Shown here: positions 848 to 63,068 of the stretch, one piece after another
Layout: each line of letters starts with the position of its first letter
Numbering within the stretch: position 1 is the stretch's first letter
Source: Mobula hypostoma
Lineage: Eukaryota
Direction of reading: 5' to 3'
DNA: 64,000 nucleotides
Assembly: GCF_963921235.1 (NCBI RefSeq)
Contig: NC_086108.1
Location: forward strand, 79,920,001-79,984,000
Translations under genes and position numbers: made by a program
Notes under the pieces: generated by a model
Seen by the model: the letters and a program-made list of their open reading frames with translations, nothing else
The model's database searches: none
What the model was told of the DNA's origin: nothing

Positions 848-1076
848 CAACACACAAAAAATGCTGGTGGAACGCAGCAGGCCAGGCAGCATCTATAGGA
901 AGAAGTACAGTCGACGTTTCGGGCCCAGACCCTTTCCTCAAGACCTGACAAAGGGTCTCGGCCCGAAATGTCGACTGTACTTCTTCCTATGGATGCTGCC
1001 TGGCCTGCTGCGTTCCACCAGCATTTTGTGTGTGTTGCTTGAATTTCCAGCATCCGTAGATTTCCTCGTGTTTGCG
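848..1076. mobile_element. Fold-back Penelope-terminus-derived insertion
   Basis: ~90-bp inverted arms; TSD ttcttact(t/g)ctta at 835-847 and 1077-1089; same sequence as the PLE 3' end at 2236-2369. Confidence 0.85.
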
Positions 1077-1195: not shown

Positions 1196-2369
1196 CTGAA
1201 TGGGAGTGATGAGGGAGGTGTAGGGGCAGGTGTGGCACTTGTTCCACTTGCAAGATTAAGAACCAGGAGGGAGATCAGTGGGGAGGGACGAATGGGCTAG
1301 GGAGTTGCGTAGGGAGGGAAAGATGTGATTGGGTGTGGGATCCAGATCAGCATTTAAGTTTCTCGATTCGGACCCTCTAAGGAACGCAGGTACTCACATT
1401 CAATTGACTGCTTCTCCTGTCGAGTGACCATCCCCACCAACAAGCACATCCTTCCCTACCCCTCCCAACTTTCTGCTTTCTGCAGGGATTGCTCCCTACG
1501 CAACACCCTTGTCCATTCATCCCTCCCCACTGATCTCCCTCCTTGCAATTGGAACAAATGCCACAGCTTCCCCAACACTTTCTCCCTCACTACCCTTGAG
1601 GGCCCCAAACAGTCCTTCCAGGTGAAGCAACACTTCACCTATGAGTCTGTTGGTGTCATCTACTGTATCCAGTGCTCCTGATGTGCTCTCCTGTATATTG
1701 ATGAGACCTGACATAGATTAGGAGACAGCGTGGCGAGCACCTATGCTCTGTCTGCCAGAAAAAACAGAATCTCCTGACGGCCACCTATTTCAATTCTACT
1801 TCCCATTCCCATTCCAACGCGTCAGTTCATGGCCTCCTCTACAGCTGCGATGAGGCCACACTCAGGTTGGAGGACAAAAAAAACTTATATTCCATTTGGG
1901 TAGCTTCCAACCTGATGGCATGAACATTGATTTCTCAAACTTCCATTAATTGCTCCCCCCTTCACTATTCCCCATTCCCATTCCCTTCTCTCACCCTATC
2001 TGCTTACCTGCCCATCACCTCCCTCCGGTATTCCTCCCCGTTCCCTTTCTTCCTTGTCCTTCTGTTCTCTCCTATCGGATACCCCCTCTCCAGCCCTTTA
2101 TCTCTTTCACCAGTCGACTTCCCAGCTCCTTACTTCACCCCTTCCCCTCTCCCGGCTTCTCCTATCGCCTACTGCTGTGTACTTCTTCCTCCCCTCCTCC
2201 CACCTTCTTACCCTGACTTTTTAATCTCTTTTTTCCCGTGCTGATGAAGGGTCCTGGCCCAAAACGTCGACTGTTTACTCTTTTCCACAGATGCTGCCTG
2301 GCCTGCTGAGTTCATCCAGAATTTTGTGCGTGTTACCTTGATTTCCAGCATCTGCAGATTTTCTCTTGT
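1196..2369 (+). mobile_element. Decayed Penelope-like element (GIY-YIG remnant, 3' terminal repeat, inverted 5' piece)
   Basis: GPKQSFQVKQHFTYESVGVIYCIQCS*CALLYIDET matches the PLE GIY-YIG pattern; ~1196-1345 is an inverted partial copy of ~1430-1600; pyrimidine-rich tract then terminal repeat. Confidence 0.8.
2236..2273 (+). ncRNA. Degenerate minimal hammerhead ribozyme motif at PLE terminus
   Basis: CTGATGA-A-GGGTCCTGGCCC-aAAACGTC-GACTG; G of GAAA changed to A at a CpG. Confidence 0.6.
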
Positions 2370-2804
2370 ATGACACTGAGTAATTTAACATTGCTGACCC
2401 TCTCCACCTCTGATCCTCGAATGACGATGGGCTCACGGACCTCTGGTTTTCTCCTCCTGAAGTCAATAATGAGCTCCTTGCTCTGGCTGACTTTGGGTTA
2501 AAGGTCATGGCACTGCTCAGCTAGATTTTCAATCTTACTCCTATATGCTGATTCATCACCACCTTGAATTCGGCCCACAATAGTGGTGTCATCAGTAAAC
2601 TTGACTAAAACATAGGAGCTGTGCTTAGCCACACTGTCGTAAGTGCAAAGCAAGTGGAGCAGGGGTCTAAGCACACAGCCTTGTGGTGCACCTGTGCTGA
2701 TGGAGATTGTGGAGGAGATGTTGTTGCCATTCTGAATTGACTGGGGTGTGCAATTAGGAAATCGAGGTTTCAGTTGCACAGGGAGGTATTGAGACCTAGG
2801 TATT

Positions 2805-3026
2805 CGTAAACACAAAATAATCTGCAGATGCTGGGGTCAAAGCAACACTCACAACATGCTGGAGGAACTCAGCAGGTCGGGCAGCATCCGTGGAAAAGAT
2901 TGGTCGATGTTTCGGGCCGGAACCCTTCGTCAGGGTTGTCCTAATGAAGGGTTCCAGCCCGAAACATTGACCGATCTTTTCCATGGATGCTGCCCAACCT
3001 ACTGAGTTCCTCCAGCATGTTGTGAG
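2805..3026. mobile_element. Fold-back Penelope-terminus-derived insertion nested in a LINE
   Basis: Inverted arms; perfect 15-bp TSD tgagacctaggtatt at 2790-2804 and 3027-3041. Confidence 0.85.
2901..2938 (-). ncRNA. Minimal hammerhead ribozyme motif, core boxes intact
   Basis: Minus strand CTGACGA-A-GGGTTCCGGCCC-GAAACATC-GACC; stem I 5' strand disrupted and GTC changed to ATC. Confidence 0.6.
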
Positions 3027-3125
3027 TGAGACCTAGGTATTGAAGTTTATTGATTAGATTTGAGGGGATGATGGTATTAAATGCCGAGCTGTAGAGCTAA
3101 AAACCATCCTGTTGTATGTACCTTT

Positions 3126-4425
3126 GAAACTCTTTGAGGAAATAATAGGCAGGATAGACAACGGAGAGACAGTGGATGCTGTTTACTTAGATTTTCAGAA
3201 GGCTTTTAACAAGTTACCGCACATGAGGCTGCTTAACAAGATAAGAGCCCATGGTGTTACAGGAAAGATATTGGCATGGTTAGAAGATTGACTGACTGGC
3301 AAGTGGCAAGGAGTTGGAATAAAGGGGGCCTATTTTGGCTGGACGTCAGTGACTAGTGGTGTTCTGCAGGGGTTGGTATTGCAACTGCTCCTTTCACATT
3401 ACAGGTCAATAATCTGGATGATGGATGTCGGAATTGATGGCTTTGTAGCAAAGTCTGCAGATGATACAAAAATAGGTGGAGGGGTTGTAGTGTTGAGGAA
3501 GCAGGAAGTCTGCAGAAGGACTTGGATAGTTAGGGAAAATGGCAAAGAAGTGGCAGATGGAATATAGTGTAGGGAATTGCATGGTCATGCACTTTGGTAG
3601 ATGCAATAAAAGCATTGACTCTTTTCTAAGTGTGGAGAAAATTCAAAAATCAGAGGTGCAAAGGGACTTGGGAGTTCTTGTGCAGAGAAAGGTTCCAGCC
3701 CAAAACGTTGACTGATCGTTTCCACGGATGCTGCCCGACCTGCTGAGTTCCTCCAGCGTGTTGTGAGTGTTCCCTAATGATTAATTTGCTGGTTGAGTCG
3801 GTGGTGAGGAAGGCAAATGTAACATTAGCATTCATTTCGAGAGGACTAGAATATAAATGCAAAGATGCGATGCTGATGTTTTATAAGGCACTGGTCAGAC
3901 CACACTTTGTGCTTTATGAGCATTTTTGGACCCCTCATCTAAGAAAAGATCTTTTGGCATTGGAGAAGGTCTAGAAGAAGTTCAGGAGAATGATTCCAGG
4001 AATGAGAGGGTTAACACATGAGGTGTGTTTGATGGTCCTCGGCCTATACTGGAATTTAGAAGAATGAAGCCGAGATCTCATTGAAACCTCTTTAATATTG
4101 AAAGGTCTAGATAGAGTGGATGTGGAAAAGATGTTTCTTATGGTGGGTGTGAGTCTAGGACTAGAGGGCACAGCCTCAGAATAGAGGAATGTCTATTTAG
4201 AACAAAGGTGAGAAGTAATTTCTTTAGCCAGATGGTAGTGAAACTGTGGAATTCATTGCCACGGATGGCAGTGGATGCCAAGTCATTGAATATAACTAAC
4301 GCAGAGGTTGTTAGATTCTTGGTTAATGAGAGAAGGCAGGAGAATGGCACTGAGAGGGATAATGGAATGGCAGAGAAAACTCGATGGGCTGAGTGCCCTC
4401 ATTCTGCTCCTATGTCTTATGATCA
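3126..4425 (+). mobile_element. Decayed CR1 LINE (RT to 3' end) with a PLE-terminus fragment at ~3685-3771
   Basis: YLDFQKAF.K, TSGVLQG, KSADDTKIGG, YKALVRPH and NFFSQ.VV.LWNSLP motifs; frameshifts. Confidence 0.85.
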
Positions 4426-5880
4426 TATTCTACAAACCAAGCATCCATTTTGGATGATTTCAATTTCCCCATTTCACCAGGCACACACAAACAGCAAAAT
4501 AGGAAGGAGCCTTAAGCAGAAAGGATATTTCCCCGAGCACCTGAAGCCTAAGGAAGCTCAGTACTTTTAAGTGTAAAGCAGTCAGTCAATGAGAGAAGTC
4601 TTCCTCGTGTTTTGAAGTTCCTTTTAAAACAAATGTTAAGTGTGACAATTCTTACAGAGTAAAAGTTAATATCGCCTTGTCTGATAAAGCAGTGATTTGT
4701 AAGTCACGTAAATTCACAAAGAGAACCTGTCAGCCGGTGACAGGTTGGCCAGGTGATGCGTTCTAGTCTCTGTTCGACCATGTGGGCCTCTGGCTGTTCT
4801 ATTGCCGTGCATAAATGTTAATCATTATTTACGAAAATCCACCCTGGATGGCAGGGCGAGCAAGTGTGTCAAACCCTCCCTTTGTCACGTATCACAATAA
4901 GAGCAGAAACAAAGCTGGAAGGAAATGAGGAGCAAAATGAAAGAGTGAAAAAAATAATTACCCAGAGGGAAAATCAGCTAGTTGTCTGAAATCAGGCGCC
5001 ATTCTTCACAGCATAATAATAGTCACTCAGCCTGGCCACCCAAGTAGTAATGATTGGAGATCAAGTGTCAGTCTTTTTGTCGTCTCTCCCCTGCTTTTGT
5101 TTGGAAGCAAATGTTTGAGACTGCAAGCTGGCTCCTTAAAAAAGATTGCAGCACCTAGATTAAACCATCTGCTTTGAAAGAATGTCAAAGCATGTCACTC
5201 ACAGATCTGTTTGTTGGGTTAAATTATGTGGCAAACTGCATTTGCTTGCCTTGGAAGTTAGAGAGTCACTTCACTGTGTCTGGATGTGTGTGGGAAGGCG
5301 GACAAAGTATCCATTTTAAAAAGGTGGATGTCATTGCCATTGCGGGCACGAGGAAACGTGTTCTGCTGCGCAGAATGAGTGTTCGGAGTGATGTTTTCAC
5401 TGTAATCGGTGAAGCTTGATTCCTAGGGCAGGCATTCTAAGCACTTCGCCAGATTCTGCTGCTTGCTTGGACAAGGGAAACCAATGCTGTAGGAAATGTC
5501 AGTCCTGTTCATGCCATACTTTCTCCTCGAACTTTCTGGTCATTCTTTAAAACAAAGAGCTTTCCCATAGATTCCTCAATGTCTCTTGACCATCTCATGC
5601 TCATGGTATGAATTAATGCATTATGGAGGGACTTGGAGAGTATCCACTCTGGGCCAAGGAACTTACATCTACCTTTGAAAGTCAGTTCTAATAGTGAAGA
5701 TATGTTGCGAACAGCACTCAATTTCCTGGGTCAGACTTTTGTATAATTATTCACAGATCCAAAACCAAATTTAGCTAAGTACACTTTGTATTTGATCGGA
5801 AAATTCTCTGTGAGTAAAATTCATAGGGAAGATGCAGTTAAGAGGGAAGTGTTCCAATATAGGTGACAGATATTCCTAAA

Positions 5881-6009
5881 TACAAGAGATTCTGTAAATG
5901 CTGGAAATCCTGAGTTCCTCCAGTAAAATGCTGGAGGAACTCAGCTTGTCAGGTATCATCTATGGAGTGGAACAAGAAGTTGATGTTTTGGGCAAAGCCT
6001 CTTCATCAG
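5881..6009 (-). mobile_element. Short PLE-terminus insertion
   Basis: TSD gacag(a/t)tattcctaaa at 5865-5880 and 6010-6025; internal perfect 14-bp hairpin 5910-5944; degenerate hammerhead motif. Confidence 0.75.
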
Positions 6010-6061
6010 GACAGTTATTCCTAAAGTTTTAGGCAAGTTTCAACAAAGATTCTCCATGAAG

Positions 6062-6807
6062 ACAGAACATTAGTATTAATGGTAAGACTCTTGGCGGTGT
6101 GGAGGATCAGAGAGATCTTATGGTCCAAGTCAAAACTGCTACACAGGTTGACAGTGCTGCTAAGAAGGCGCACGGTGTGTTGGCATTCATCAACCATGGG
6201 ATTGAGTTCAAGAACCATGAGGTAATGTTACAGTTGTATAAGACCTTAGTCAGACGCCACTTGGGGTACAGTGTTCAGTTCTGGTCACCTCACTACAGGA
6301 AGGATGTGGATACTATAGAAAGAGCGCAGAGGAGATTTACAAGGATGCTGCCTGGATTGGAGAACTTGCCTCATGAGAATAGGCTGAGTGAACTCGGCCT
6401 TTTCTCCTTGGAGCGACGGAGTATGAGAGGTGACCTGATAGAGGTGTGCAAGATAATGAGAGGCATTGATCGTGTGGATAGTCAGAGGCTTTTCCCCAGG
6501 GCTGAAATGGTTAGCATGAGAGGGCATAGTTTTAAGGTGCTTGGAAGTAGGTACAGAGGAGATGTCAGGGGTAAGTCTTTCACACAGAGAGTGGTGGGTG
6601 CGAGGAATGCACTGCCGGTGATCATGGTGGAGGCAGATACAATAGGGTCTTTTAAGAGACTCTTAAATAGGTACTGGAGCTTAGAAAAATGGACAGCTAT
6701 GCAGTAGGGTAATTCTAGGCAGTTTCTAGAGTAGGTTACATGGTCAGCACAACATTGTGGGCTGAAGGGCCTGTAATGTGCTGTAGATTTCTATGTTCTA
6801 TGTTCTA
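6062..6807 (+). mobile_element. 5'-truncated CR1 LINE
   Basis: ORF 6099-6707 LQLYKTLVRRHLGYSVQFWSPHYRKD... is the CR1 ORF2 C-terminus; (ttctatg)n tail. Confidence 0.9.
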
Positions 6808-7787
6808 ACTGATAATCTGCTTTACTTAATAGAACATGTTCACCTACTAGTTAGTATTTAGTGCATGGGCATTTGCATCAAGGTGGCCAATGGTCAAATG
6901 GAAAAGGTACAAGAGCTGGGATTGGTCTACTGAGAAGAAGAAAATTGTTTCCTTAGTGTGTCCAAAGAACTTCTTTGCATTGTTCCCACTTGTCACTGAG
7001 AGTTCAGCCTAGAATGATTCCAAGCTTCTATGGCTGTGCTTTGTACATTATTCTTGTTCTACAGAGATTATGTTATGTACTTCTTAACTCTGAAATTTCT
7101 TAAGGTGAAACAGAGACAGGCATCTGAAAACACTGAAAGATTGAGAGATTAAAAAGAATGACAGACGAGCACGAAGGGAAAGGAAGTTCCTTGAGAGGGC
7201 ATAAATCATCAGTAACTCATGGAGTCGCTAAGCGCGTGAATTCCTGTTTGCTGAATGTTGCAGGGTGGAACAAGTCATATGCAGTGGTTGTAAAAGGTCA
7301 CTCCACAAATTTTGTAGCATGCCTAGGGATAGGTGTCGTAGTGGTGCAGGTGTCCTCATGGTGAATGTTGCATCTGTGCGTGTGCATCTGGCCTTCCACT
7401 GACCTGGGTCCTCTGACAGCTCTCCTCCGGACAGCTGGGACAGTGCCCACAAATGCAGTTAATGGCAGGTGTGGCCTGTTAAGCTGCACCAGTTGCTGAT
7501 TACTCAGGGATGTCTTCTTTCATGTGGTACCAACATAAAAACATGGCATGCTGTGAGGGTGTGCTTTTGAGCAGCCATCCTGTATTTCCGAGGCGGAAGA
7601 TTGACAGCGTTGACAAAAGTCGTTTACCAGCAGGCTGTGGTGCAAAAGTTCATGTGGAGGCTCAGGAACACTGAGATTCTGTCTGCGGTCTTGTTCACTT
7701 ATCAGCCAACCAATCAGGGGAGGGCAGGCATTTCAATTGACCTTCAGGCCAGGAGCACTTTCTGAAAATAAGCATTCACATTGAATA

Positions 7788-9601
7788 CATAGAAACATAG
7801 AAAACATAGAAAACCTACAGCACAATACAGGCCCTTCAGCCCACAAAGCTGTGCTGAGCATGTCCCTACCTTAGAACTACCTAGGCTTTATGCTTAGCTC
7901 TCTATTTTTCTAAGCTCCATGTACCCAGGAGTCTCTTAAAAGACCCTAGCATTTCCAACTCCACCACCGCCGCCGGCAGCCCATTCCACGCACTCAGCAA
8001 CCTCTGAGTGAAAAACTTACCCCTGACATCTCCTCTGTACCTGCTTCCAAGCACCTTAAAACTATGCCCTCTCGTTCTAGGCATTTCAGCCTCTATCAGG
8101 TCAACTCTCATCCTCCATCGCTCCAAGGAGAAAAGGCCGAGTTCACTCAACCTATTCTCGTAGGGCATGCTCCCCAATCCAGGCAGCATCCTTGAAAATC
8201 TCCTCTGCACCCTTTCTATGGTTTTCACATCCTTCCTGTAGTGAGGCAACCAGAACTGAACACAACACTCCAAGTGGGGTCTGACCAGGGTCCTATATAG
8301 CTGTATCATTACCTCGCGGCTCTTAAACTCAATCCCACAATTGATGAAGGACAAAGCACCGTACGCCTTCTAAACTGCAGAGACAACCTGCGCAGCTGCT
8401 TTGAGTGTCCTATGGACTCCCTCTGATCCTCTATGCTGCCAAGAGTCTTACCATTAATGCTATATTCTTCCATCATATTTGACCTACCAAAATGAACCAC
8501 CTCACACTTATCTGGGTTGAACTCCATCTGCCACTTCTCAGCCCAGTTTTGCATCCTATCAATGTCCCTCTGTAACCTCTGACAACCCTCCACACTATCC
8601 ACAACACCCCCAACCTTTGTGTCATCAGCAAATTTACTAACCCATCCCTCCACTTCCCCATCCAAATCATTTATAAAAATCACAAAGAGTAGGGGTCCCA
8701 GAACAGATCCCTGAGGCAGACCACTGGTCACCAAACAGCATGCAGAATATGACCCACCTACAACCACTCTTTGCCTTCTGTGGGCAAGCCAGTTCTTTAT
8801 CCGCAAAGCAATTTCCTCTTGGATCCCATGCCTCCTTACTTTCTCAATAAGCCATGCATAGGGTACCTTATCAAATGCCTTGCTGAAATCCTTATACACT
8901 ACATCTACGGCTCTACCTTCATCAATGTGTTTAGTCACCTCCTCAAAAAATTCAGTCAGGCTCGTAAGGCATGACCTGCCTTTGACAAAGCCATGCTGAC
9001 TATTCCTAATCATATTATACTTCTCCAAATGTTCATAACTCCTGCCTCTCAGGATCTTCTCCATCAACTTACTAACCACTGAAGTAAGACTCACTGGCCT
9101 ATAATTTCCTGGGCTATCCTGTCATACTTGACTGGTCCTATTCTCTCACGTCTTATCCTCTTGCTCTTCACATAGTTGTAGAATGCCTTGGGGTTTCCCT
9201 TAATCCTGTCTGCCAAGGCCTTCTCATGGTCCATTCTGGCTCTCCTAATTTCATTCTTAAGCTCCTTCCTGCTAGTCTTATAATCTTCAAGACTCCTATC
9301 ATTACCTAGTTTTTGAACCTTTCGTAAACTCTTCTTTTCTTCTTGACTAGATTTACAATAGCCTTTGTACACCATGGATCTTGTACCCTACCATCCTTTC
9401 CATGTCTCATTGGAACGTACCTACTCAGAACCCCACGCAAATACCGTCTGAATATTTGCCACATTTCTTCTGTACGTTTCCCTGAGAACATTTGTTTCCA
9501 ATTTATGCTTCCAAGTTCCTGCCTGATAGCCTCATATTTCCCCTTATTCCGATCAAACGTTTCCCTAACTTGTCTGTCCTATCCTTCTCCAATGCTACGG
9601 T
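7788..9601 (-). mobile_element. 5'-truncated CR1 LINE with internal deletions
   Basis: RT motifs QHGFVKGRSCLT, DFSKAFDKV, GLPQGSVLGP, KFADDTK; (catagaaa)n tail on plus; possible TSD aatacat at 7784-7790 and 9602-9608. Confidence 0.92.
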
Positions 9602-25810: not shown

Positions 25811-27654
25811 AATGGATACCGTCTGGTGGAATTTTATTTCCCTTTTGTTGTTGGTTTAATATATCTAGTGTCTTGGCAATCATTTAAACTGTGCAGCAAT
25901 ATTTTTTTCCTCTAAAACACAGGGACTGCTGCAGAAAAGAGAGAACTCGGGCACAGCTGTGGAACAGCAGTAACCTTTCTGCTAGTCCTTACTGACTTTC
26001 CAGCTTTAAAGCCTTTGAGCCCCATGTGTGCCGAGGAAGGCCAAGTGTTTATCTAACAACATAGTAAGATAAGCAACAATATACATTACTTGGAATTCAC
26101 AGGAATGGCACGCAACTCCAATGAAGGCCCAGGATCTGTCTCCCCGCCTCATTGAAAACAATTTTTTTTTGGTTTACGAGTTTCCACTGTGGCTTGGTTA
26201 TGTCTACGTATGTTCTGGAGAGGAAGGTGGGGGTTGGTTTGTATGTTAAAGGGGCCATGGCATCTATTTTGTGGGGAAGAGTCCAGTTGTAACCGCACTT
26301 TGAAGCGATTTGGAAGGAAATATGCTGACGGGGTTTCGACAAGTTTGTAAAATTAATTTCACGAGTAACATTTTGTTACAGTCCTCTGAACCCAATCCAC
26401 AGCCCATTCTTTGTGCCAATCTTCTTCTTACCCTGTTAAAAAATAGTTGTGGTCCTGGCTTGTAAAACTGCTGATGAATCATTTAGCAAGGGATTCTTGC
26501 AATGATATTGCTGAAAAGTCAAACTTCAGCCATGCTTTTTTTGGTCCAAACATAACTAACTCTCAATTTGCTGCTCCATCACTGCCAGAAAATTCACTGG
26601 GCTGAATATTCTGCATTACTGTCTTGTTTCTTTATCATTGACTTTCTAATAACACTCTCTAAGCAGACTGAGGAAAATGCCTTGCCCTGGCCCGTTTGAC
26701 CCCTCCACAATTAGCTAATATCACTGTGGGAGGATTGAGGGTGGGGGTGCAGGATCTGCACCTATGATAATGAGGTTCAGTCTGTCAAATTAGCCCCAAC
26801 ACCAAGGCTGCCTTTTGCTGCAAATCATCAGGCAAAGATGCTTCTACTTCCTGGTGACTGCAATTACCAAAATTCAATTTGGTATTTTACAGTAATGAAT
26901 GAACATGTTGGTTAATCTCCCCCACCAAAAAAAAACTTAATTGCTCTCCCCCCCCACCCCCATGCCCTCCTAGTACAACAATCAGACGAGCAAGCATTTT
27001 CTGTTTATTTTACTGAAGCCAACAGTCTGAAAATCAATTGGTTGGCATGTTTTTGCCAGACCTCCAGGTAGGTAGCATGTCAGAATCCCGTTGTTTATGC
27101 CTTATGTAATCTTTTCCATTCTGGCGAAAGCTTGTTGAAAAATGCAGAGTTTGTTCAGCTGTTTATGGTGCATGCACCAAAGAAGAAATATTTACAACAA
27201 TTTCCTTACACTAACCCACGCTATCTGACTGGCTCTCTAAATAAGACCTCCCTGCCTGAAAGTCTACCTTGTGGTTCATTTAGCTCAATGTTTAAAATAA
27301 AAAGTCAGCTGGGGCTTTCAAAATAGTATCTCTGTTTCCCATCAGTTTTAAATGATGCAGAGTAGAAATTCCTCCCGTGCATCCACCCTTCTGCCATTTC
27401 TCCGTTTTTTCAATTCTTTTCCTTTATACAAGGGTACAAACACAGAAGCAAGAGCCCATTTCAAGTCTGCTTCACCATTCAATATGATTATAGAAGATCT
27501 GACAATAGGCTCCACCTTCCTGCTTGATCCCTAAAACATTGGACTCCCCTGTAGACAAAATCATGGCCATCTTAAAGGGTCTGTTCTAATCACCTAAATG
27601 GATAGAAAATCTATCCCTTATCCTCTGTGGCTGCTGTAGACTGGAATTGCACCC

Positions 27655-28265
27655 AGCCTCACAAGTTGATAGGGTAGTTAAGAAGGCTTATGGTGTGTTG
27701 GCCCTTATTAGCCAGGGGATTGACGTCAGGAGCTGCAAGGTTATCTTGTAGCTCTATAAAACTCTGGTTAGACTACACTTGGAGTATTGTGTTCAGTTCT
27801 GGTCGACTCGTTATAGGAAGGATGTGGAGATTTTGGAGAAGGTGCAGAGGAGGTTTACCAGGACACTGCCCAGATTAGCGAGTGTGTCTTATGAGGAATA
27901 GTTGAGTGAGCTAGGGTTTTCTCTTTCGAGTGAAGGAATATGAGAGGCACAGATGGAGTGGACAGCTATTGCCCTTTTCCCCAGGGAGGCAATGTCAATA
28001 CCAGACGCCATCTTTGCAAGGTGAGTGGAGGAAAGTTAATGGGAGATGTCACAGGTAGGGATGTTTTATACACGGAGGGTGGTGGGTGCACTGCCGGGAT
28101 GATGGTCGATACAGAGCGACAGTTGAGAGACTCGTAGTCACATGAATGGAGGGTTATGGGTTGTGTAGGAGAAAAGGATTAGATTAATTGTGAAGTAGGG
28201 TGAGATAGGTCAGCACGATATCGTAGGCTGAATGGCCGTCCTGTGCTTACGCTTCTATGTGATGT
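27655..28265 (+). mobile_element. Decayed CR1 3' fragment (intronic, antisense to ptch2)
   Basis: ctctataaaactctggttagactacacttggagtattgtgttcagttctgg, homologous to the copy at 6062-6807. Confidence 0.85.
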
Positions 28266-28874: not shown

Positions 28875-29010
28875 AAAGCAAAAACCTGCAGATGCTGCCA
28901 GTCTGAAACAAAAAAGAAACAAAAAGTGCTGAAAACACTCAGCAGCTAGACAGTATCCATGAACGGAGAAACAGTCAGCATTTCATGTCTGAGATCCTCC
29001 GTCAGAACAC
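28875..29010 (-). mobile_element. Older PLE-terminus fragment
   Basis: ctgcagatgctg...acactcagcag; minus strand CTGACGG...GAAATGCTGACTG degenerate hammerhead motif. Confidence 0.55.
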
Positions 29011-31040: not shown

Positions 31041-31215
31041 AAGACCATAAGACCATAAGACATAGGAGCAGAAGTAGGCCATTTGACCCATTGAGTCTAC
31101 TCCGCCATTCATTCATGGCAGATCCTTTTATCCCCTCCTCAACCCCATTCCCCGATAAGACCATAAGAGTTAGGAGCAGAATTAGGCCATTTGTCCCAAA
31201 CAAAATTAGGCCATA
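31041..31215 (-). mobile_element. Stacked CR1-type 3' tails
   Basis: (agaccata)n followed by taggagcagaa.taggccattt, present twice. Confidence 0.65.
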
Positions 31216-41762: not shown

Positions 41763-42950
41763 TAATCTATTTTACGCAAATCTGATGCTTCAGTCATCCT
41801 GCTCCCCCCACCTCACCAGCCGTTACTGATAGTGATGCTTGCTATTGAAATGGCAAAGTCATGCTCCCCCAGTCCTTGACATCCTTCGGCAAAAATCACA
41901 CTGCTGTTGGAACTGAGTAGGTCAGGCAGCATCTGTGGAGGAAGAAGGATCAGGGGGATGGTTAATGTTCAGACCGCCCATTCGTCTGCCTCCACAGATG
42001 CTGCATGACACGCTGAGTTCCTCCTGTTCTTTTTTGCTTCAGTTTACAGCATCTGCAGTCTCTTCTATCTCCTCTGACGTCCTTCACTCTGACAAGCATC
42101 AAGGTTTGCCCTATTTTTCAAAAGAATGGCTCAAAGAAAACTTCTCTGAACAATTCAATTGTTCCTGCCATTTAGTGGTTTAGAAAGAAATCCATTTCAA
42201 AACTTTGATTTACATCACTGAAAATAAACCACAATTAAGACCCGGGAATGCATGGAGTATATTAAAGGGCACAGTTTGCAAGATTTTTTAAAAAGTTTTA
42301 GAATGTTCAATGATATCCTGTGTGGTCTAACAAAAAAGGATATACGGTTTTTCAAATCGCATCAGTCTGTTCAATCTGTTATGGCTGTGACAGATGCATT
42401 TTTTTAAAACCAGTTAACTCCATCTGGTAAAGCCTTTGAACATTTCAGTATCTTTATTTCACTTTTATTTTGCATCTGGGTGTTTGTTTCCTCCTGCTAG
42501 TTCTATTGATCTGTGTCTCTAAGGCTCCTTGAGTGATAAAATCTTTACACCCACTGACTTAGAGCTTGCTGAGTCAAGGTGAATTGTTTCACCAAAACTG
42601 TAGAATTAAACGGTACCATCAGAGGCTCTGCACAATTTGGTGCTAACAGCATTGTTGAATAGTCATGCTGTATATGAGTGACACGATTACTAGAACAGAA
42701 AGAGTAGGGTGTTCAAGCTGTGTAAAAAAAATTAAATATCTTCTGTTGTCATGAGCTTATCCTACAGGTAAATCTCCAGAGATGTGGCAATCGTTCTGCT
42801 GACTGTGAAGCAAGAGGTATACTTAAACAAAAAAACTGATCTCTGCATGAAAAATGAACAGAGATGGATGTTATATTTTATTCCTTATGAAGATAGTCTT
42901 TCAGCCAAATACATTTACCTATTACGGTTAAATAATGGGCTGTATAATGT

Positions 42951-43179
42951 ATACACGAGGAAATCTGCAGATGCTGGAATTTCAAGCAACACACATACAA
43001 GTTGCTGGTGAACGCAGCAGGCCAGGCAGCATCTCTAGGAAGGGATACAGTCGACGTTTCGGGCCGAGACCCTTCGACAGGACAGACGAAGGGTCCTGGT
43101 CGGCCCGAAACGTCGACTGTACCTCTTCCTAGAGATGCTGCCTGGCCTGCCGGGTTCACCAGCAACTTTTATGTGTGTT
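42951..43179. mobile_element. Young fold-back Penelope-terminus-derived insertion (intronic)
   Basis: Near-perfect ~90-bp inverted arms with CpGs retained; TSD gctgtataatgt at 42939-42950 and 43180-43191. Confidence 0.88.
43048..43085 (-). ncRNA. Minimal hammerhead ribozyme motif, one core mismatch
   Basis: Minus strand GTC-CTGtCGA-A-GGGTCTCGGCCC-GAAACGTC-GAC. Confidence 0.6.
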
Positions 43180-43234
43180 GCTGTATAATGTGTACACACT
43201 TTGATCATAAATAGACGTTGAACTTAAATTATAT

Positions 43235-43472: not shown

Positions 43473-44242
43473 CAAGAAAATTCAAGGAGACCCCAATGAG
43501 GATTACTTGGAAGAACTGAGAATGGGGATGGGATGATTCTAGAGACCCTCAAAGATTTGCCTTTTTTTTTGATGCAGAGCTGCACAGATTCACTTAGGAA
43601 ACATTGTCCGGTGTCTGTCAACGACATAGGTTCAAAAACCATTGTTGGTAAGACCCTTGGGAGCTTTGGGTCAAGGGTTTCAAGGACTGAAGATTTCTAG
43701 CTGCCAGAAACTTCAAATACTAAGTACACTCGGTGACTATCTGAGCTGACAGAAGCTGTACAGAATGAGCATATCTTTCTGCAAAATGGAAAAAGTGGAA
43801 TTTCCCGGTGGCTAACCATTTTAATTTCTATCCTCATTCCCACTCTGACATGTCAGTCCACGGCCTTCTCTATTGCCATGATGAGGCCACTCTAGTGGGG
43901 AGGAGCAACACTCTATATTCCATTTAGGTAGCCACCAAACTGATGGCGTGAACATCAATATCTTCTTCCACTAATTTTTTCTCTCCTCCTTTCCCTATTC
44001 TATTCCCCACTCTACCCTCTTATCTCTTCTCCTCACCTACCTATCATCTCCCCCTCATGCCCTTCCTCCTTCCCTTTCTCTCATGGCCCACTTTTCTCTC
44101 CTATCAGATTCCTACTTCTTCAGCCCTTTGCCTTTTCCATCTATCACCTCCCAGCTTCTTACTTCATCCCTCCCACCTGGATTCACCCATCGCCTTCCAG
44201 CTAACCTCCTTCTCCTCTCCCACCTTTTTATTCTCGTATTTT

Positions 44243-44565
44243 AGACCATAAAATATAGGAGCAGAATTAGGTCATTAGGCCCATCGAGTCTTCTGCACCA
44301 TTTCATCATGACTGATCCAATTTTCCTCTCCACCCCAATCTCTTGCCTTCTCCCCATATCCCTTCATGCCCTGATCAATCAAGAATCTATTATACTTAAA
44401 GATTTGGTCTCCACAGCTGCCTGCGGCAAAGAATCCCAGATTCACTACTCTCTGGCTAAAGAAATTCCTCCTCATTTCCGTTCTAAAAGGACACCCCTCT
44501 ATTCTGAAGCTGTGACCTCTAGTCTTAGATTCTCCCATCATAGGAAACATGCTCTCCATGTCCAC
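44243..44565 (-). mobile_element. CR1 3' fragment nested in PLE
   Basis: ORF 44275-44565 MFPMMGESKTRGHSFRIEGCPFRTEMRRNFFSQRVVNL. Confidence 0.82.
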
Positions 44566-44582
44566 TCTTCACTCTTCCCTCT

Positions 44583-44620
44583 CAGTCCTGATGAAGAGTC
44601 TCAACACGAAACATTGACTG
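44583..44620 (+). ncRNA. Hammerhead ribozyme motif, perfect stem I, decayed stem II
   Basis: CAGTC-CTGATGA-agagtctcaacac-GAAAC-att-GACTG. Confidence 0.6.
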
Positions 44621-45669
44621 TTTATTCATTTCCATAGGTGCTACCTGACCTACCGAACTCCTCCAGAATTTTGTATACATTGCTTCAGATTTCCAGCATC
44701 TGAAGACCTTCTCATGTTCAGGCCTAAAGTCTGTAGGCAGGTATAATGCAGAAAAGTACCTTGTAAGGAGAACATGCATATATGTTGCAGAGAGCGAGAG
44801 AGGAGAGAGAGAAAGAAGAGGGAGAAAGAGATAGATAAAAATCAGGGTTGTTGTACAGTGCCACTTGGAAAACAATACCAATTCACATGAAGGAAGCTTT
44901 GAAAAAAAGTTATTATAAAAGAATCCTAATCTTCAGCCTTGTAAAGAGATGCCAATGAGTGTCTTTAGTTACAGGGCTAAGGTAGGGTAACGCTCCGAAC
45001 TCATGCATGGTCTCGGTAGAGTGTTGGCTGTTTGGCAGAGAAACTCTGCTGAAATGTAAACACACCTTGTCATTCAATCTCACAAATGCAATCAACCCAA
45101 ACCCTCAAGGCATGAGGATGTAATACGAGTCGATTTACTCGGAAAAGAAAAAAGCGTTGTTGTATTTCCTGCTTTGCTTTCCCCTTCCCTCCCCCCCCCC
45201 ACCCACACCCCTCCAATTCAACCCTGAAGGGAATTTAAGTCTTCAGAAAACATTTGTGTACTCCATGCTCAGGAGAGCTGGGAGGCAGCTGTGTATTCAC
45301 TGATGAATGTCTCAGAACAAAGCTGTTTACTGGGAACAGAGGGCACCACCAAGTCCACACAGGGAAAGTTTCAGGACAAAGCAGGAGCTGACACATTTTT
45401 AGCAGTAGGTCACATGGAAAAATATTAAGAACACATCAAAAAGACATTAAAGAGGAAAGGGAAGGGCTGTACTAGATACGTAGCATTTAGATTTATCAAC
45501 AGTTATCAGCAAGCATATTACAGCAGTGTCGTTTGCGAGGGATTTGTTCATTCTCAGTTGTAGCAGACTTCAAACTGAGATGCAAGATTTTATCCACAGG
45601 TATTCACATCCACAGGTATTTCCAATCAACACAAGAGAACAGCATTCTTAATGCTGCAGTTTCTGTGAC

Positions 45670-45868
45670 GACACAAGAGACTGCACATGCTGGAACCAGG
45701 AGCAATAATCTGTTGGAGGAACTCAGTGGGTCTGGCATCATCTGAGGAAGAAAACGAATTGCCGATGTTTCAGATCAAACCTCTGCACCAGGATCGAGCG
45801 CAGGTCTTACAACCAGAGTCATGAACAATTCCTGAGTTCCTCCAGCAGATTGTCCAGTTGCTCCAATT
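45670..45868. mobile_element. Older fold-back PLE-terminus-type element
   Basis: aatctgttggaggaactcag ... ctgagttcctccagcagatt inverted pair. Confidence 0.55.
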
Positions 45869-48200
45869 TCTCTGTGATGCTTGCATTTAAAAGTAAGGCA
45901 TCTGCACCTATTGCTACTGAGTGCATCTCTATAGAAGCAAAGAATTTGTTTCAAAAGGCAAAATATCGTTGGATTTGAAAAATACCAGACCAGTCTCTGT
46001 GGTGACATGAGTTGTTACTTTCCTTTGCAGCACAAGGGTGTCAACAATAGGTTAAAAAATGTTCGTTCCCTTCCTCAGTAAAATTAGTATCCGTACGGTA
46101 CTTTCACAGAGTCCTACAGAACAGAAACAAGTTCCTCACCCCACTGAGACTGTACCAGCCATCAAGCTCCCAATACTCAAAACCTACACCAGTCTCATTT
46201 CACTCTATTCACAATTACATTAGCAGCATCCAGATTCTGTTAATTACCTTCGTACTTAGTCATTTTACAATGTTCAATTAACCTACCTACCTGCACATCC
46301 AGAAGAAACCAGCACATTTACAGACAGAGAGAACAGGCAAACTCTGCATAGACAGCTTTGCCCAGAACTGAATCCAGGTTTCTGGAATCAGCCGCTCTGC
46401 TGGCTGTGGCCCTGTGTCTTACCCAGCCCCTCAGATAAGCCGCTCTGCCACTCTAAAATCAACCATGAATGTTGAAGTCAAAGGTTCAAAGGCTCATTTT
46501 ATTATCAAAGTATGTATGCAGAATACAACAATGAAATTTGTCTTCTCCAGCTAGCCATGCAATACAGAAAACCATGTAAGTAGTTGAAAGAAAGACATCA
46601 ATTCCCCTTCCACACAAGAAGAAAAAAGATACAAAAACTAAAATGCTTTTGTATGGAATATTGAAAGAAAGTATTAGTAAGGGTCCTCCGCCAGATCCAC
46701 GCTTTCATCAAACGACTGTCAGTAAGGGTGCTCTCTCTGCGCTTTCTTTCAGGGAGGATGTGGACCAATTGAAAGTGCATTGAAAATGATAAAGCCAAGA
46801 TTCAGAGATTAAACTTTAGTAAAACTTTTTTAAAAATTATCACTAAATCAAATGAATACCCAAATCATAGATTTAAGGACAATATTGGAGCATGGTACTT
46901 CTAACAGAAATGGTAACTTGTTTAAATGAAATTTTAAAATTAAAATAAATTTTTCTATGATATAAATACTCAGTGATTACTTGATAGTGGTTGTGCACTC
47001 AAAGTTTGAAGTGTATTTTGGATGTTGCTTCAATTTCAAATCTTTTAAGTACATCTGAAAGTTTGGATTTAAGTCTTCCGCATTTGGTGATCAAGAAACG
47101 TATGGAATCCAGTGCAAATTTACATAGTGCATCTGACCTACTCTACAGACATTGGGCTCCTTCATCTTCATGATGTCATTACTCAATAACATACGCCAAC
47201 CACCAATTTGCTTAGATAGTGAGTCACGGCTGTTTATCATTACAATTGAAACTGAAATGAAACACTACCCACATATAGAAAACACCATTTCCTGTTAAGG
47301 TGAAAGGTGGACTTGTGCTAATTGGAAGTTCTCTCATGCTGGGGGTGCTCCTTTCTCCGGGTTTATTCTCTTTAGGTAGGTGTGCCCAAACGTTCTTTTT
47401 CTTGGAAAGTATATTCCTAAGTCCTTCCTTACGACCTGGTCCAGCACCAACTCTCTGATAACTGTTTCTCCAATTCCAACTTCTGGTGCATTCCCACACT
47501 TCCTCCTGCCCTCCAGTGGCCTCCAAATTTGAAGTCCCATAATTCCTTCCATAAATGTCTCTCTCCCTCCTCCCCCCCCCCCAACACTTTAAGAAACATA
47601 TTACCACTAGCTTGTTTTACCCAGGTTCTTTGTCTGAGCCTAACAGTGCAAAAGTTTCCTCCTGTGAATCACCTTGGTACACTTTAGTATGATAGAAATT
47701 GCAAGCTCTTGCTGTTGATCTGGGATAAACAGAAAACTTTGGGAAGCAGTAAATGCTATGTCATTACTCTATCACAGTGCCACTGGAATGGGTGTTCGTC
47801 ATAGAAAGAGCACATTTTCCCTTTCAGTCCTGCTTTCATTCAACATTTGTGCACCTTTCATCCTAAATCCTGTTTCTCGCTTAGTATGCTTGTATGTTTA
47901 CCTCATCCATATTAGGTGCTTTGACATTAAGCTTACTGACTCTCGAAGAGAAGGCCTTTTTATGTTTCTAACAAGCTACACGCTTTCTAACACTGCAGGA
48001 GATCATAGCAGGTAAATAAGTCCTTTCAGTTCACAAGGACCATGAAAGTGTAAGCCTCTGTTGCTGCCTGTAAAGGTAAGTTAGGCAATTTATCCAAGAG
48101 ACAAAGAAACAGATTCAGTTTTATAACATGGTTTTTCCACCATATTCATCCCTTTTTCACATTTATTCATCAAAAATGATCCTGCAGTCTGAGTTTGTCA

Positions 48201-48209: not shown

Positions 48210-49121
48210 TACGGCTGTGTGTTCAGTTAGTCAATCATTGTTTCAACAGCATTGCTAACATAAGCACTCAATGCTACTGCAGTACTATTTAATCATTCTA
48301 GATTTTTCATAATTAAAGGAATGTCAAAATAAAGGCCTTTTGCTTTTCATTATCTACATTCAGATTCCTATTGCAATAAAAATATTATTGGAGTCAGAAA
48401 AATCTAGAAATAGCAGCTTAGTAGCACTGAAACTCTTCAAGTTATGCACACAAATGAGTCTTGCTAATTATTACCATAACTGAAGCCTTCTTTGTGGAAT
48501 CATGATGTAATTCCCTTGTCATTTGTGCCTGCCTCAATCTTTTTAAAACAACACACATTACATGGAAAACGTACATTTCCAAAGTTTGAGACACAGCAGA
48601 TCAAGTGTAAGCCTCAGAACAAACAATATGCATTCAAATAGAAAACATTCCAGACGCTTGAAGGGGCAAGGTGGAGAAATAGAAATGATTGAGGCGAGAT
48701 GATATTATTTTTAAACTACTTGCAGGAGAACTTGGGGGGGGGGGGAGGTCAGAAATGGAACAAAAGTAATGCAGAACTGATTGACGGACAAGGTAGCATT
48801 TTGCAAGATAACTTTCTGGCATTTTTCTTATAAGGTGTTTAAGGTGTAAGCATTCAATCAGCCAACAAATGCAATAACTTCAGAGAATTAGCAATATTGG
48901 TTAGATTTTAAAGGCGATGTGTAATTGTCCCTACAGCTTTAGCTCATCCATGCAGTACGACTTAACTGGGATCTAACAGGTTGAGAGACAATAATGAGTA
49001 TTAATATGGGGCTGGGGGGGAAACCATTGCAGAGTATTGGAAAAAGCTGCGGAAATTTACAAACTCAACCAGCTCTATTATGGGCACTAGCCTCCCCAGC
49101 ATTAATGACATCTTCAAAAGG

Positions 49122-49945
49122 CAACACACACTAAATGCTGGAGGAATTCAGCAAGTCAGACTGAATCCATGGAAATGAACAGTTGGTGATTCGGGCTGAG
49201 ACCCCTCTTCATGGAGGGAACGATCGTGTGGAATGTGGAGAGGCAGAGAGAGGTAAAGAAGTGTTTGGTGGTAGGAGCCCTTCGGAGGTGGCGGAGGTTG
49301 TGGAGGACAATGTGTTGGACATGCAGGCTGATGGGATGGTGGGTGAGGATAAGAAGAAAGGTATTACTGGTGGCTGGAAAATGGGGTGATCGCAGACATG
49401 GAGGAGATGTGTGGAGGGAGGGCGAACCCCATTCTTTGAGCAAGGAGGACACCTCTAATATCTGGAAAGTATAGCTTCATTCTGATGTGGTGGAGATGAA
49501 GGAACTGAGAACAGGTGACAGGTTGGGAAGAGGTATAATCAAGATAGCTGTGGGAAAGGTAGGTTTATAAAAGATGTTGGTTGATAGTTAGTATCCAGAG
49601 ATGGAGACAGAGGTGTCAGAAATGGACCAAGTGAAGTTAAGGGCGAGTGGAAGTTGATGAAATTGACGAGCTCGGTATGAGTGCAGGAAGCAGCACCAAT
49701 GTAGCAGAGGAAGAGTTGGGAAGTGTTATTGGGGTTACTTGGGACATGGACAATTTTACATAGCCAGTGAAAAGGTAGGCATAGCTGGGGCCCATGGCTA
49801 CCTGTCAAGTCTGCAGAAAGTGGGAGTAGCTGAAGGTAAAATTGTTGGGGGGGGGGGAAACCAGTTCTTCCGGATGGAGGAGGATGATGATGGAGGGGAA
49901 CTGATTGGTTCTTTCATTGCAAAAGAAGCAGCGAGCTCTTCCTTA
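49122..49945 (-). mobile_element. Decayed Penelope-like element with RT remnant
   Basis: Minus-strand translation NNFTFSYSHFLQT*QVAMGPSYAYLFTGYV and QLFLCYIG (decayed LRYIDD); terminal repeat at 49122-49210. Confidence 0.75.
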
Positions 49946-51233
49946 AGGTTTCTTGATGAGGGATGAAAGTGTTTTGGGACCGATCCTTCTGCTGATTCTG
50001 AAAAATTTCTGAGGCATTGGTTCAAGTAAGCAAGTTAGGTGGTGATTAACCTTTCTGTTACAAGGTAATCTTTAGCAGGAAGGCTGACATCTTCTGCTTA
50101 ACGTGAATCAGAAACTGAGTGTGCGCGTGTCTCTAACTGCAATGAGAAATTGCAAGTTTAACTGCACTAGGATCACTGATGATCATCTCCTTTGACTTTA
50201 TGTGATCTTTCAACACGGTAGTGTCGAAAAAGCCCTCTGTCACAAGCAGGAAAGCTGCTGTTATTTTATCAGTTCACCAACAAGATATGGACGTATGACT
50301 GAAACCAGAGCAAATTTTTTTGACAAGAAAAATGACCAAAAATGAAATTAAATGTGTGGTTCTGAGTATTCAATATAGCTAGCTGAAATCATGAAAATAA
50401 TTAACATCCTGATTGGCAAGTTATTTCCAGATTCCTTGCATCACTAAGAGAGCATCACTAACCCTTCAGTAATATTTCTTTAATACTCATTCAAGAGATG
50501 TGGCTACACTAGCTCAGCCGGCTTTTAATTGCCCATTTCTTGTCACCCTTAAGGTGGTGGTGGGGAGCTGGCTTCATGAACTACTGTAATATACTCTGGC
50601 ATTCCTTACACAACAACCACCTACATGTAAAGTTATGATTTCCGTTCTGCCTCTGTTTCAGCTACATGAGAAAGGACAAGGCGTCAAACAATTCATATAG
50701 TCTCTAGCTTATTTGCTACGAAACTTCACAGGGTTCAAATAGTTCAGTCTAATACATACCTGATAGCTGTGGTCTGCTACAAGAAAAAGACTCGCATTTC
50801 CATGTCTCTCAGAAACATCTCAGTATACTTTACATGCTATGAATTACTTTGAAGTACAGAGACAGTCACTTTGTATATATCAGGCCCCAAAATTTACATT
50901 CCTGGGCTATTCTTCAGAACCCCAGACCCCACTTCAAGTACCCCAAGCCATGTTGAAATTAACAGATGTTGAATTCAAAAGCTCATGTCATAAAACAAAT
51001 TATGGTAGAGGATATACGAACAAGAAGATTAGGAGCAGATTATTATATTGTGGTGCAGTTTCTTTAACCCTAAACCACTAATGGAGGCCTGTTTTAAGTT
51101 TCTGAATTTCACCTTCAGATCCCCAAGCTAAGTGGTATTTTGTACTGAGATGACATTATGCATGCAAACACACTTAACTGCTCACTGTTAAATGGTGAAC
51201 AAAAAATATGAAAGAGAGGTTTTGTAATCTTAC

Positions 51234-51546
51234 CTCTTAGCCAGTCCTGAATATAATGCAACCACATTTTTGGCAACAGTTTATTCTCTTCACGAACAAT
51301 ATATTTGATACTATCGAAACTCCTGTGCAGATCATAAAGCAGCTTCTGGGATGCAGCATAATCAAACCCCCCCATGGAGACGATGTACATGTTGTAGAAG
51401 GAAAAATACTTGAATTGGGCTTCAATAAAATTGTACTCCTTGGTTTCACGAGGCACAATGTCTGTAAGGTACAGCCCATCATGAACCATGGTAGTTCCAT
51501 AAAGGCTCATCCCAAGCAAGGCCATGAAGAGGATTAACACGACAAT
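51234..51546 (-). CDS. ptch2: Patched exon (exon 15 equivalent), 313 nt
   Basis: [38 protein letters not shown]...[14 protein letters not shown]; donor gtaaga. Confidence 0.95.
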
Positions 51547-51704: not shown

Positions 51705-52080
51705 CAGGGGACCTCATTGAAAGGACTAGATAGAGTGGACATGGATAGGATGTTTCCTATATTGGGGGAGTCTCGGACCAGAGGGCAGAGCCTCAACCAA
51801 TATAAAGATGTCCCTTTACAACAGAGATGAGGTGGAATTTCCTTAGTGAGAGGCTGATGAATCTGTGGAATTCCTTGCCACAGATGGTTGTGGAGGCCAA
51901 GTCATTGGTATATTTAAATCAGAGTTTGACAGGTTCTTGATTAGAAAAGGCGGCAAAGGTTACGGGGCGAAGGCAGAAGAATGGGGTTGGGAGGGATAAT
52001 AAATCCGCCATGGTGGAATGGCGGAACAGACACGATGGGCTGAATGGCCCGGTTCTGCTTGTGTGTCCTATGGGCCTATG
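51705..52080 (+). mobile_element. CR1 3' fragment
   Basis: Homologous to 4075-4420. Confidence 0.8.
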
Positions 52081-52339: not shown

Positions 52340-52480
52340 TGACTGATGCAGGGTTTCAACTTGAAATGCTGACAACTCCTTCTCCCCCACCCTCATCCAC
52401 AATGCTGCTCAACCTGCGGAGATCCTCCGGCAGATTATATTCTGCTTCAGATTCCACCATTCTGCACTCTTCTGCCTCCA
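52340..52480 (+). mobile_element. Older PLE-terminus fragment
   Basis: ctgatgcagggtttcaacttgaaatgctgac...atgctgctcaacctgcggagatcctcc. Confidence 0.5.
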
Positions 52481-56934: not shown

Positions 56935-57200
56935 CATAAAGAGAGGAGGACTTGAGGAGGAATTTCTGAAGCCAGAGGGTGGTGAATCTGTGGAACTCAT
57001 CGCCACAGATGGCTTGGAGGCCAAGTCACTGGGGATATTTAAAGCAGAGGTTAATAGGTTCTTGATTAGTAAGGCGTTAAAGGTTCAGGGAGAAGACGGG
57101 AAAATGCAGTGGAGAGGGATAATAAATCAGCATGATGGAATGGTGGAGCAGACTTGATGGGCTGAATGGCCTAAATCTGCTCCTATGTCTCATGGTCATA
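56935..57200 (+). mobile_element. CR1 3' fragment
   Basis: gaggaggaatttc..agccagagggtggtgaatctgtggaactcat...ctcctatgtctcatggtc. Confidence 0.8.
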
Positions 57201-57834
57201 TAAAGTTATATTTAAAAAAAGCACTTACACAATTTTCTACATTTGAGACCACCAGTGCAGGTCACAACTTACTAGCGGTATTAGAAAGGTGTCTACTGGA
57301 TAACAAGTAAATTATCATTCTCAGGAGTCAAATCGTATGTTTTATAAGGGGCGACAAGTTAAAAGGGGAAAAGCTGCATGCAAAATTTGGTTTCCATAAT
57401 TGCCTTTCAAGTCTATAAAATAATTCAATGTCGATGACATCCTAAGTCAAGTGGTCCTGATCCCATCCTTACAAAATTCTATTTTTTTTATTTTATTGCA
57501 AAATGTTCTGATCAGTTCATCACACTTCAGAAGCCAAACTCTACTCTGCCACACTTCTAAAGAAGAGCTACACTGTTGTTCAGCAGACTGCTAAGCCCCT
57601 CTGTGGCTGACATCTGCAGGTAGCAAGAGAGAAGGTGCAGGTAAATTCAAAGAAGCATGTAACACCTGGAGCAAAGGAATTTACAGCCCTTAATCCACCC
57701 TCATCCAGTCTGCCCGGACCCCTCCCATGCCCCTCTGCCACTTTCCAACTCAAACATTTTGCAAACTTCTTTGAGAATGTTCAACCGAGGTATTAAGCGA
57801 TGCATTCTCCAGCCACTTTACATGATTCACTTAC

Positions 57835-59774: not shown

Positions 59775-59980
59775 AGGACACAAACAAAATGCTGGAGGAG
59801 CTCAGCAGGCCAGGCGGTATCTATGGAAAAAAGTACAGTCGACATTTTGGGCCGAGACCCTGAGGCCTGAAACATCGACTGTACTTTTCTCCATAGATGC
59901 TATCTGCCCTGCTGAGTTCTTCAAGCATCTTGTGTGTGTTGCTTGGATTTCCAGCATCTGCAGACTTTCACTTGTTTGTG
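59775..59980. mobile_element. Fold-back Penelope-terminus-derived insertion (intronic)
   Basis: Inverted arms; TSD at(t/c)gatttcaa at 59764-59774 and 59981-59991. Confidence 0.82.
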
Positions 59981-62854: not shown

Positions 62855-63068
62855 AAACACAAGAGATTCTGCAGATGCTGGAAATCCACAGCGACACACA
62901 CAAAATGCTGGAGGAACTCAGCATCTACGGAAATGAATAAACAGTCAACATTTTGGACCGAGTCCCTTCATCAGGACAGAGGGTCTCGGCTCGAAACATT
63001 GTCTGTTTATTCATTTGCAGGAATCCCTCCTGACCTGCTGAGTTCCTCCAGCATTTTGTGAGCATTGT
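62855..63068. mobile_element. Fold-back Penelope-terminus-derived insertion (intronic)
   Basis: Inverted arms; imperfect TSD tcacaga(ta/ag)cat at 62843-62854 and 63069-63080; minus-strand CTGATGA hammerhead remnant at 62942-62979. Confidence 0.78.

Follow-up and report, generated by a model that had tools for sequence, protein, structure and literature searches.

The most frequently dispersed short sequence in a 64,000-nucleotide stretch of the Mobula hypostoma genome (hereafter the window) has a copy at 2236..2273 that resembles a self-cleaving RNA, which raises two questions: what is this repeat, and does it encode a ribozyme? A sequence-only reading had proposed a ribozyme family. The hammerhead part of that proposal holds, whereas the notion of an independent family does not, the repeat being the truncated 3' end of a Penelope-like element (PLE). 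Very probably, the repeat is the 3' pseudo-LTR (pLTR) of a high-copy Neptune-type PLE, and the pLTR of the source element opened with a minimal type-I hammerhead. Direct observations underlie five points: the sequence of the motif, its linkage to PLE remnants, the fold of its consensus, its conservation in a distant homologue that has compensatory pairs, and damage in every window copy.

The repeat and its PLE

The repeat unit is ~137 nt long, and the hammerhead makes up its first 38 nt only. Twenty-one copies (arms) were aligned to the 137-nt consensus, totaling 2220 bp or 3.5% of the window; arms below about 40 nt would escape detection. Self-matches number up to 10-14 for most arms and 3-5 for the oldest, against 5 or fewer for the next family, so the earlier description as the window's most abundant short repeat is borne out. 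That reading had placed the motif at ten coordinates. All ten hold it, on the strands given, but the set was incomplete: further arms lie at 3687, 28876, 41875/41991, 45673/45832, 49121, 52343, 59778/59864, and 62980. A 25-nt core pattern with up to three mismatches matched the window four times and 100 shuffles not once, and a profile built from 15 copies led to the additional arms. The features are collected in Table 1, in which positions within the 2236..2273 copy follow the hammerhead numbering.

Table 1. Coordinates of the pLTR repeat, PLE remnants, and host exon in the window
Feature	Position	Strand	Remarks
Inverted segment of this PLE's ORF, at the truncated copy's 5' end	1196..1342	-	
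PLE ORF remnant (Zn-finger linker and GIY-YIG)	1433..1949	+	stops, frameshifts
Pyrimidine-rich PLE 3' UTR	1950..2235	+	common to 43789-44195, 70% over 422 nt
3' pLTR of the PLE	2236..2372	+	optional 'tail' is the last ~37 nt (about 2335-2372); loose ends behind 2369
Minimal type-I hammerhead, damaged	2236..2273	+	changes at 2237 and 2240 (stem I 5'), G12>A at 2261
Predicted cut site of the 2236 copy	after 2268	+	hammerhead numbering
Head-to-head pLTR pair	848..1074	short (-), long (+)	13-nt target-site duplication
Head-to-head pLTR pair	2810..3028	long (-), short (+)	17-nt target-site duplication, 1 mismatch
Solo short arm	3687..3771	+	start about G8
Solo long arm	5880..6012	-	start stem I 2.3; 16-nt target-site duplication overlapping arm end
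Old solo long arm	28876..29008	-	
Old head-to-head pair	41875..42068		hammerhead part lost or decayed
Young head-to-head pair	42951..43182	long (-), short (+)	18-nt target-site duplication
Second PLE remnant (GIY-YIG end, 3' UTR, pLTR)	43778..44717	+	motif 44583-44620
Foreign repeat interrupting the UTR of the second remnant	about 44244-44568		
Old head-to-head pair	45673..45870		
Third PLE remnant (RT C-terminus, linker, pLTR)	49121..49715	-	
Host Patched gene exon	51232..51498	-	E 6.7e-38 to Patched homolog 1
Old solo arm	52343..52466	+	
Head-to-head pair joined within stem II	59778..59978		11-nt target-site duplication
Head-to-head pair	62859..63067	long (-), short (+)	7-nt flanking repeat only, chance level

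The element to which the repeat belongs can be read from its neighbors. The remnant at 1415-1765 matches a 422-residue Mobula hypostoma protein, P0002, with 65% identity (E 7.7e-33). P0002 has a C-terminal GIY-YIG after the RT, and a C-X4-C-X2-C linker, also found in the inverted piece at 1196-1342, lies between the RT and the endonuclease region; its GIY-YIG match is weak (E 4.6e-4, 20.9 bits, below the Pfam cut-off of 22.6). The protein aligns to 1433-1949 (+), 43778-43959 (+), and 49249-49715 (-), and each alignment runs into the repeat. In all three remnants the motif thus lies within the pLTR, downstream of a PLE RT/GIY-YIG ORF. The link to Penelope-like remnants had been correctly drawn for the motifs at 2236 and 44583, and the remnant at 49249-49715 (-) had been missed. 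In this third remnant, an internal deletion joins the linker to the pLTR inside the CUGANGA box via a short shared word (49200-49250, -). A Zn-finger linker of the form CX2-5CxxC marks Neptune and Nematis PLEs (PMC8557442), and Neptune is preferred over Nematis because, among PLE clades, only Neptune and Poseidon have been found in vertebrates (bioRxiv 10.64898/2026.07.22.740005). Sequence thus identifies the repeat as a PLE's 3' pLTR, and this PLE is assigned to the Neptune type from its linker and from the vertebrate occurrence of the clade.

Other sequences lie close by. The repeats near 51232-51498 are probably intronic. A second repeat family, with up to five self-matches, is found at 4209-4424, 31047-31191, 44244-44568, 51828-52072, and 56953-57201; we take it to resemble the 3' end of a CR1-type LINE, and its copy at 44244 interrupts a PLE UTR. 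There is also a large inverted repeat at 6130-6662 / 7929-8404, with arms that are 84% complementary and a third copy at 27654-27920.

Anatomy of the insertions

The window contains five young and two old head-to-head pairs of arms. In each of the five young pairs, one arm ends at consensus 134-137 and the other at 97-102; one long and one short arm in five of five pairs has a chance of 1 in 32 at even odds per arm. Target-site duplications of 11-18 nt, with at most one mismatch, flank five of the six young inserts (1% of 2000 control pairs reach 11), and the flanking repeats of five older or uncertain inserts measure 6-9 nt, which is chance level. At the other end, the starts of 15 of the 21 arms fall in an interval that opens about 8 nt before stem I and closes with stem II; the commonest start is stem I position 2.3. 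Among the remaining arms, two keep UTR and ORF, one has an internal deletion, and three are shorter. None of the 21 arms starts at the cut site. The young pairs are joined near the 5' edge of the ribozyme, never at the cut site, and the central joints differ in all five. Arm-to-arm identity is 93-96% in three of the five pairs and 79% and 84% in two older ones, which supports one template per insertion in those three pairs only.

Two deductions follow from this anatomy. First, arms of both lengths share their stopping point on the template, which means that position and not length determines the stop. Second, joints at the 5' edge of the ribozyme, and never at the cut site, indicate that the template RNA was uncleaved, and we infer an uncleaved-template origin of the copies. 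Among the 24 rows of run contigs listed (described below; 1,607 further rows), no loose end falls at the cut site, a weak negative. In the mechanism that we propose, genomic copies would arise by target-primed reverse transcription of uncleaved RNA. Synthesis would have two alternative start sites, some 65 and 102 nt beyond the cut site, and in most cases would end at the 5' edge of the ribozyme. A frequent outcome would be head-to-head pairs of unequal arms, one long and the other short, which would then decay, much of the change occurring at CpG.

Twin priming is known from L1 elements, and priming from both nicked strands explains the head-to-head pairs. Self-priming on an antisense template, as proposed for the inverted pLTRs of Penelope (PMC3846280), or a fold-back also explains them, and the window data fit all of these models equally. 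More speculatively, and rather against our expectation, the ribozyme may have a second, non-catalytic job, in which two uncleaved pLTR RNAs paired through the palindromes of the hammerhead support dual priming and their cDNAs are joined at the start of the hammerhead. Two nicked target strands would prime simultaneously, one per start site, and both cDNAs would terminate at the start of the paired hammerheads and be joined there. If true, such paired templates would account for the common arm end, the head-to-head form, and the one-sided tail, and for the upkeep of the hammerhead though cleavage is dispensable in vitro; genomes would then be very rich in ~90-bp intronic hairpins. The five young head-to-head inserts of the window are themselves predicted to fold into hairpins of roughly 75-100 bp on either strand, at about one per 13 kb; any that are transcribed might be acted on by RNA editing or by Dicer.

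In the UTR-keeping copies (2219-2240 and 44569-44587), a pyrimidine tract is followed by CAG, the consensus letters of the 5' strand of stem I, an arrangement that resembles a 3' splice site; the Penelope element of D. virilis has an intron that ends at helix I (PMC4209133). Three arms with T at stem I position 2.4 had suggested that a spliced 5' exon is recorded in truncated arms, a suggestion that was dropped because the target-site duplication accounts for these letters in one of the three.

The shortness of the copies also invites a different origin, namely that the repeat is a non-autonomous retrozyme or SINE-like ribozyme element with masters of its own, moved by the PLE in trans. This would suit the 18 of 21 arms that have neither PLE ORF nor UTR, 15 of which start nearly alike, and animal retrozymes do derive from pLTRs and occur in one chondrichthyan genome (bioRxiv 10.64898/2026.07.22.740005). 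We nevertheless regard it as unlikely: the three ORF remnants end in the same sequence, no head-to-tail motif tandem is present among the repeat families and arms of the window, and the joint differs in each of the five young pairs, as separate insertion events predict. The truncated 3' end of a PLE remains the preferred identity of the repeat.

The hammerhead of the source element

The sequence-only reading had called every copy defective, and the strict type-I minimal descriptor agrees, with 0 matches in the window; it also finds 0 in 20 shuffled windows. Allowing one core mismatch yields two window matches against 0-2 in 20 shuffles, a result within the shuffle range, so no single copy is significant alone as a ribozyme. 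The defects comprise G12>A (5 arms), G8>A, G5>A, A6>U, a broken stem II, and truncation, many copies being cut off within the ribozyme. Core changes of the G12>A, G8>A, G5>A, and A6>U kind are known to abolish cleavage. The copy closest to an intact ribozyme (A6>U) belongs to the pair at 42951..43182. CpG decay, which had been suspected, is evident: 30 of the 62 differences from the consensus are CpG-type transitions in the 15 younger arms, a tally that omits the three oldest motif-bearing arms and leaves N7 T/C changes uncounted.

For the consensus of the source motif, contigs of four of 20 listed public runs (four organisms) were aligned to 2050-2410 at 80% likeness, yielding 49,603; 60,670; 46,387; and 6,124 aligned contigs per run. 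All of the listed runs consist of contigs, and depth was not taken as evidence; the four have 9-22% of sampled words in common with the window and may come from relatives and not from the species itself. In all four runs, position 2237 is A in 79-93% of depth and position 2240 is C in 56-79%, which reverses both stem I defects of the 2236 copy. N7 varies, with C in 15-40% of the run contigs. The loose-end consensuses (387-737 contigs; three large runs) have stem I, core, stem II, and triplet exactly as first written, and the structural reading proves right throughout: stem I of CAGUC/GACUG, the CUGANGA box, a 4-bp stem II with tetraloop, GAAA, the ACGU palindrome, and the GUC triplet. At 2261 (G12), G is the minority among the run contigs (29-38% of depth), which we attribute to reference bias (the reference has A, and contigs with G would be clipped there) together with CpG decay. 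G12 is present in 13 of 18 window arms, and the consensus G12 was set from these and from the loose-end rows. The consensus therefore contains CUGANGA, GAAA, and an NUH triplet, which no window copy has intact.

Minimal hammerheads in the pLTRs of metazoan PLEs were defined by Cervera and De la Pena in 2014 (PMC4209133). The consensus has the layout given there (helix I of 3-5 bp, helix II of at least 4 bp, type-I order), an extra nucleotide between A9 and 10.1, a G10.1-C11.1 pair, and a palindromic 15.2/16.2, and the U-rich 5' flank of the motif fits the published consensus. That paper names four class features that came out although the search had not asked for them. Three of these, namely the extra nucleotide, the G10.1-C11.1 pair, and the palindromic 15.2/16.2, are present in the consensus; the fourth is stem covariation, which the window arms do not show (below). 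By the sequence and structure of its consensus, the motif is a minimal hammerhead.

A distant homologue allows a comparison from outside. Locus L024 is a PLE 49% identical to P0002; its contig is assigned to an Endozoicomonas MAG but is presumably animal DNA, probably that of the host. The fragment at L024:43-1330 holds part of a PLE ORF with an intact minimal hammerhead. This motif is perfect, lies about 130 nt past its GIY-YIG, passes a similar descriptor, and is nearly identical to the Acropora Neptune row in Fig. S3 of PMC4209133. It agrees with the window-family consensus at every core position, and in stem I two of the three pairs differ in a compensatory way; in the shuffle test, 12 of 500 reached the score and 48 of 500 the pair count, with one outside lineage. 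The compensatory pairs are suggestive of the hammerhead structure, as the testimony of one lineage and not as statistics. Among the 18 window arms, stem covariation does not rise above shuffles (297 of 500 were as high), as expected of copies decaying after insertion.

Searches of collections returned little. For the window and two short stretches, all with damaged copies only, Rfam produced 0 matches at the gathering score, and a search relaxed to E<=10 brought up no hammerhead; its low-threshold matches were hairpin-shaped miRNA noise. In viral contigs, neither of two DNA patterns had a match, and no relative of the PLE was found. Twenty-three metagenome matches to a 21-nt pLTR pattern were attributed to chance, being alike only over the pattern and lying in contigs of 51-77% GC.

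Would the source motif have cleaved? In the predicted fold of the consensus pLTR, stems I and II form with a pair probability of 0.9-1.0, which drops to about 0.5 when 60 nt of upstream UTR are added. The consensus monomer is predicted to pair G5-G8 with ACGU/C17, giving a closed rod of -12.7 kcal/mol (-14.5 if N7 is C). For two molecules, the active double hammerhead is predicted at -19.9 kcal/mol, versus -25.4 for two closed monomers and -33.7 for a mispaired duplex formed through the GUCGAC palindrome. The predicted low stability of the active dimer fits what is described for the class, in which members cleave weakly as dimers (PMC4209133) and cleavage of the anole PLE (PAc) is assisted by PLE protein (PMC11167929). 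In a tandem PLE transcript, two motifs could pair via the ACGU palindrome, probably with the help of PLE protein, and the paired motifs would cut slowly after GUC, while a lone motif would fold into the closed rod. On these grounds, we infer that the source motif may cleave after GUC. The genomic copies present a different picture: head-to-head pairs are predicted to fold, on either strand, into hairpins of -99 to -181 kcal/mol, and such long hairpins would bury the ribozyme in most young copies.

The same folds could be taken to mean that the motif is hammerhead-shaped yet no longer a catalyst in this lineage and is kept as a structural signal (for protein binding or RNA pairing, or as a promoter or splice acceptor), given that in the predicted monomer the core is buried against the cleavage triplet, that other states are more stable than the active dimer, and that 0 arms start at the cut site. 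The anole PLE points the same way, with ribozyme mutants that still insert in vitro and no RNA-seq reads ending at the cut site (PMC11167929). We hold this to be improbable, since all catalytic positions match those of L024 whereas stem I letters differ, and class members do cleave, weakly as dimers (PMC4209133) or with PLE protein (PMC11167929). A chance likeness of a hairpin-rich repeat to the hammerhead consensus is scarcely credible, for although Rfam has no hammerhead match and the window has neither an intact copy nor covariation, the descriptor is absent from 20 shuffled windows and yet the consensus shows its every element, the motif sits downstream of GIY-YIG as the class predicts, and L024, which passes a similar descriptor, already contradicts it.

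Relation to known systems

The hammerhead class has been in print since 2014 (PMC4209133), and what the window adds is its extension, at very high copy number, to a lineage for which we did not find it in print. In a literature search that was incomplete and had repeat databases outside its scope, no published PLE hammerhead of a cartilaginous fish was found, retrozymes having been counted in one chondrichthyan. Repeat annotators gain the right label for the window's commonest short repeat, and the many short inserts bounded by target-site duplications preserve the start and stop points of PLE reverse transcription. The origin of head-to-head pLTRs and the purpose of the hammerhead become testable by counting joints in one assembly.

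The closest relatives are the minimal hammerheads of PMC4209133, with which the window motif shares the type-I layout, CUGANGA with the extra nucleotide, the G10.1-C11.1 pair, the palindromic 15.2/16.2 with no further stem III, the U-rich 5' flank, the position after GIY-YIG, and an occurrence mostly as solo truncated copies. In Fig. S3 of that paper, the Acropora Neptune and Crassostrea rows are close to it in layout; the 56 motifs from 40 species in this figure include no shark, ray, or chimaera. The window has about one arm per 3 kb, and 4,000-9,000 motifs per genome are given for coelacanth and Xenopus (PMC4209133), a comparison in which the published figures count descriptor hits and ours all arms.

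Non-LTR retrozymes (bioRxiv 10.64898/2026.07.22.740005) are likewise pLTR-derived and non-coding with a type-I hammerhead, and one chondrichthyan genome contains them. They are head-to-tail tandems with complete motifs. In the window, by contrast, the copies are defective and stand alone or head-to-head, and no head-to-tail tandem with complete hammerheads occurs.

The Anolis Poseidon element PAc (Frangieh et al. 2024, PMC11167929) also has a hammerhead in its pLTR and an uncleaved RNA template; its two reverse-transcription starts define a tail of 30-40 nt, and the arm ends in the window lie ~37 nt apart. PAc differs in clade, being of Poseidon, whereas the window-type protein has the Zn-finger linker of Neptune/Nematis (PMC11167929, PMC8557442).

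The inverted pLTRs of Penelope (Arkhipova et al. 2013, PMC3846280; Craig et al. 2021, PMC8557442) have, as in the window, a head-to-head arrangement with a one-sided tail, and in both the target-site duplication flanks the whole insert. The window inserts differ in consisting often of just two arms of ~100-137 nt. Their joint lies at the 5' edge of the hammerhead, a relation between joint and ribozyme that the passages on these inserts in the two papers do not draw, and the way in which joints gather at this edge is the part worth pursuing.
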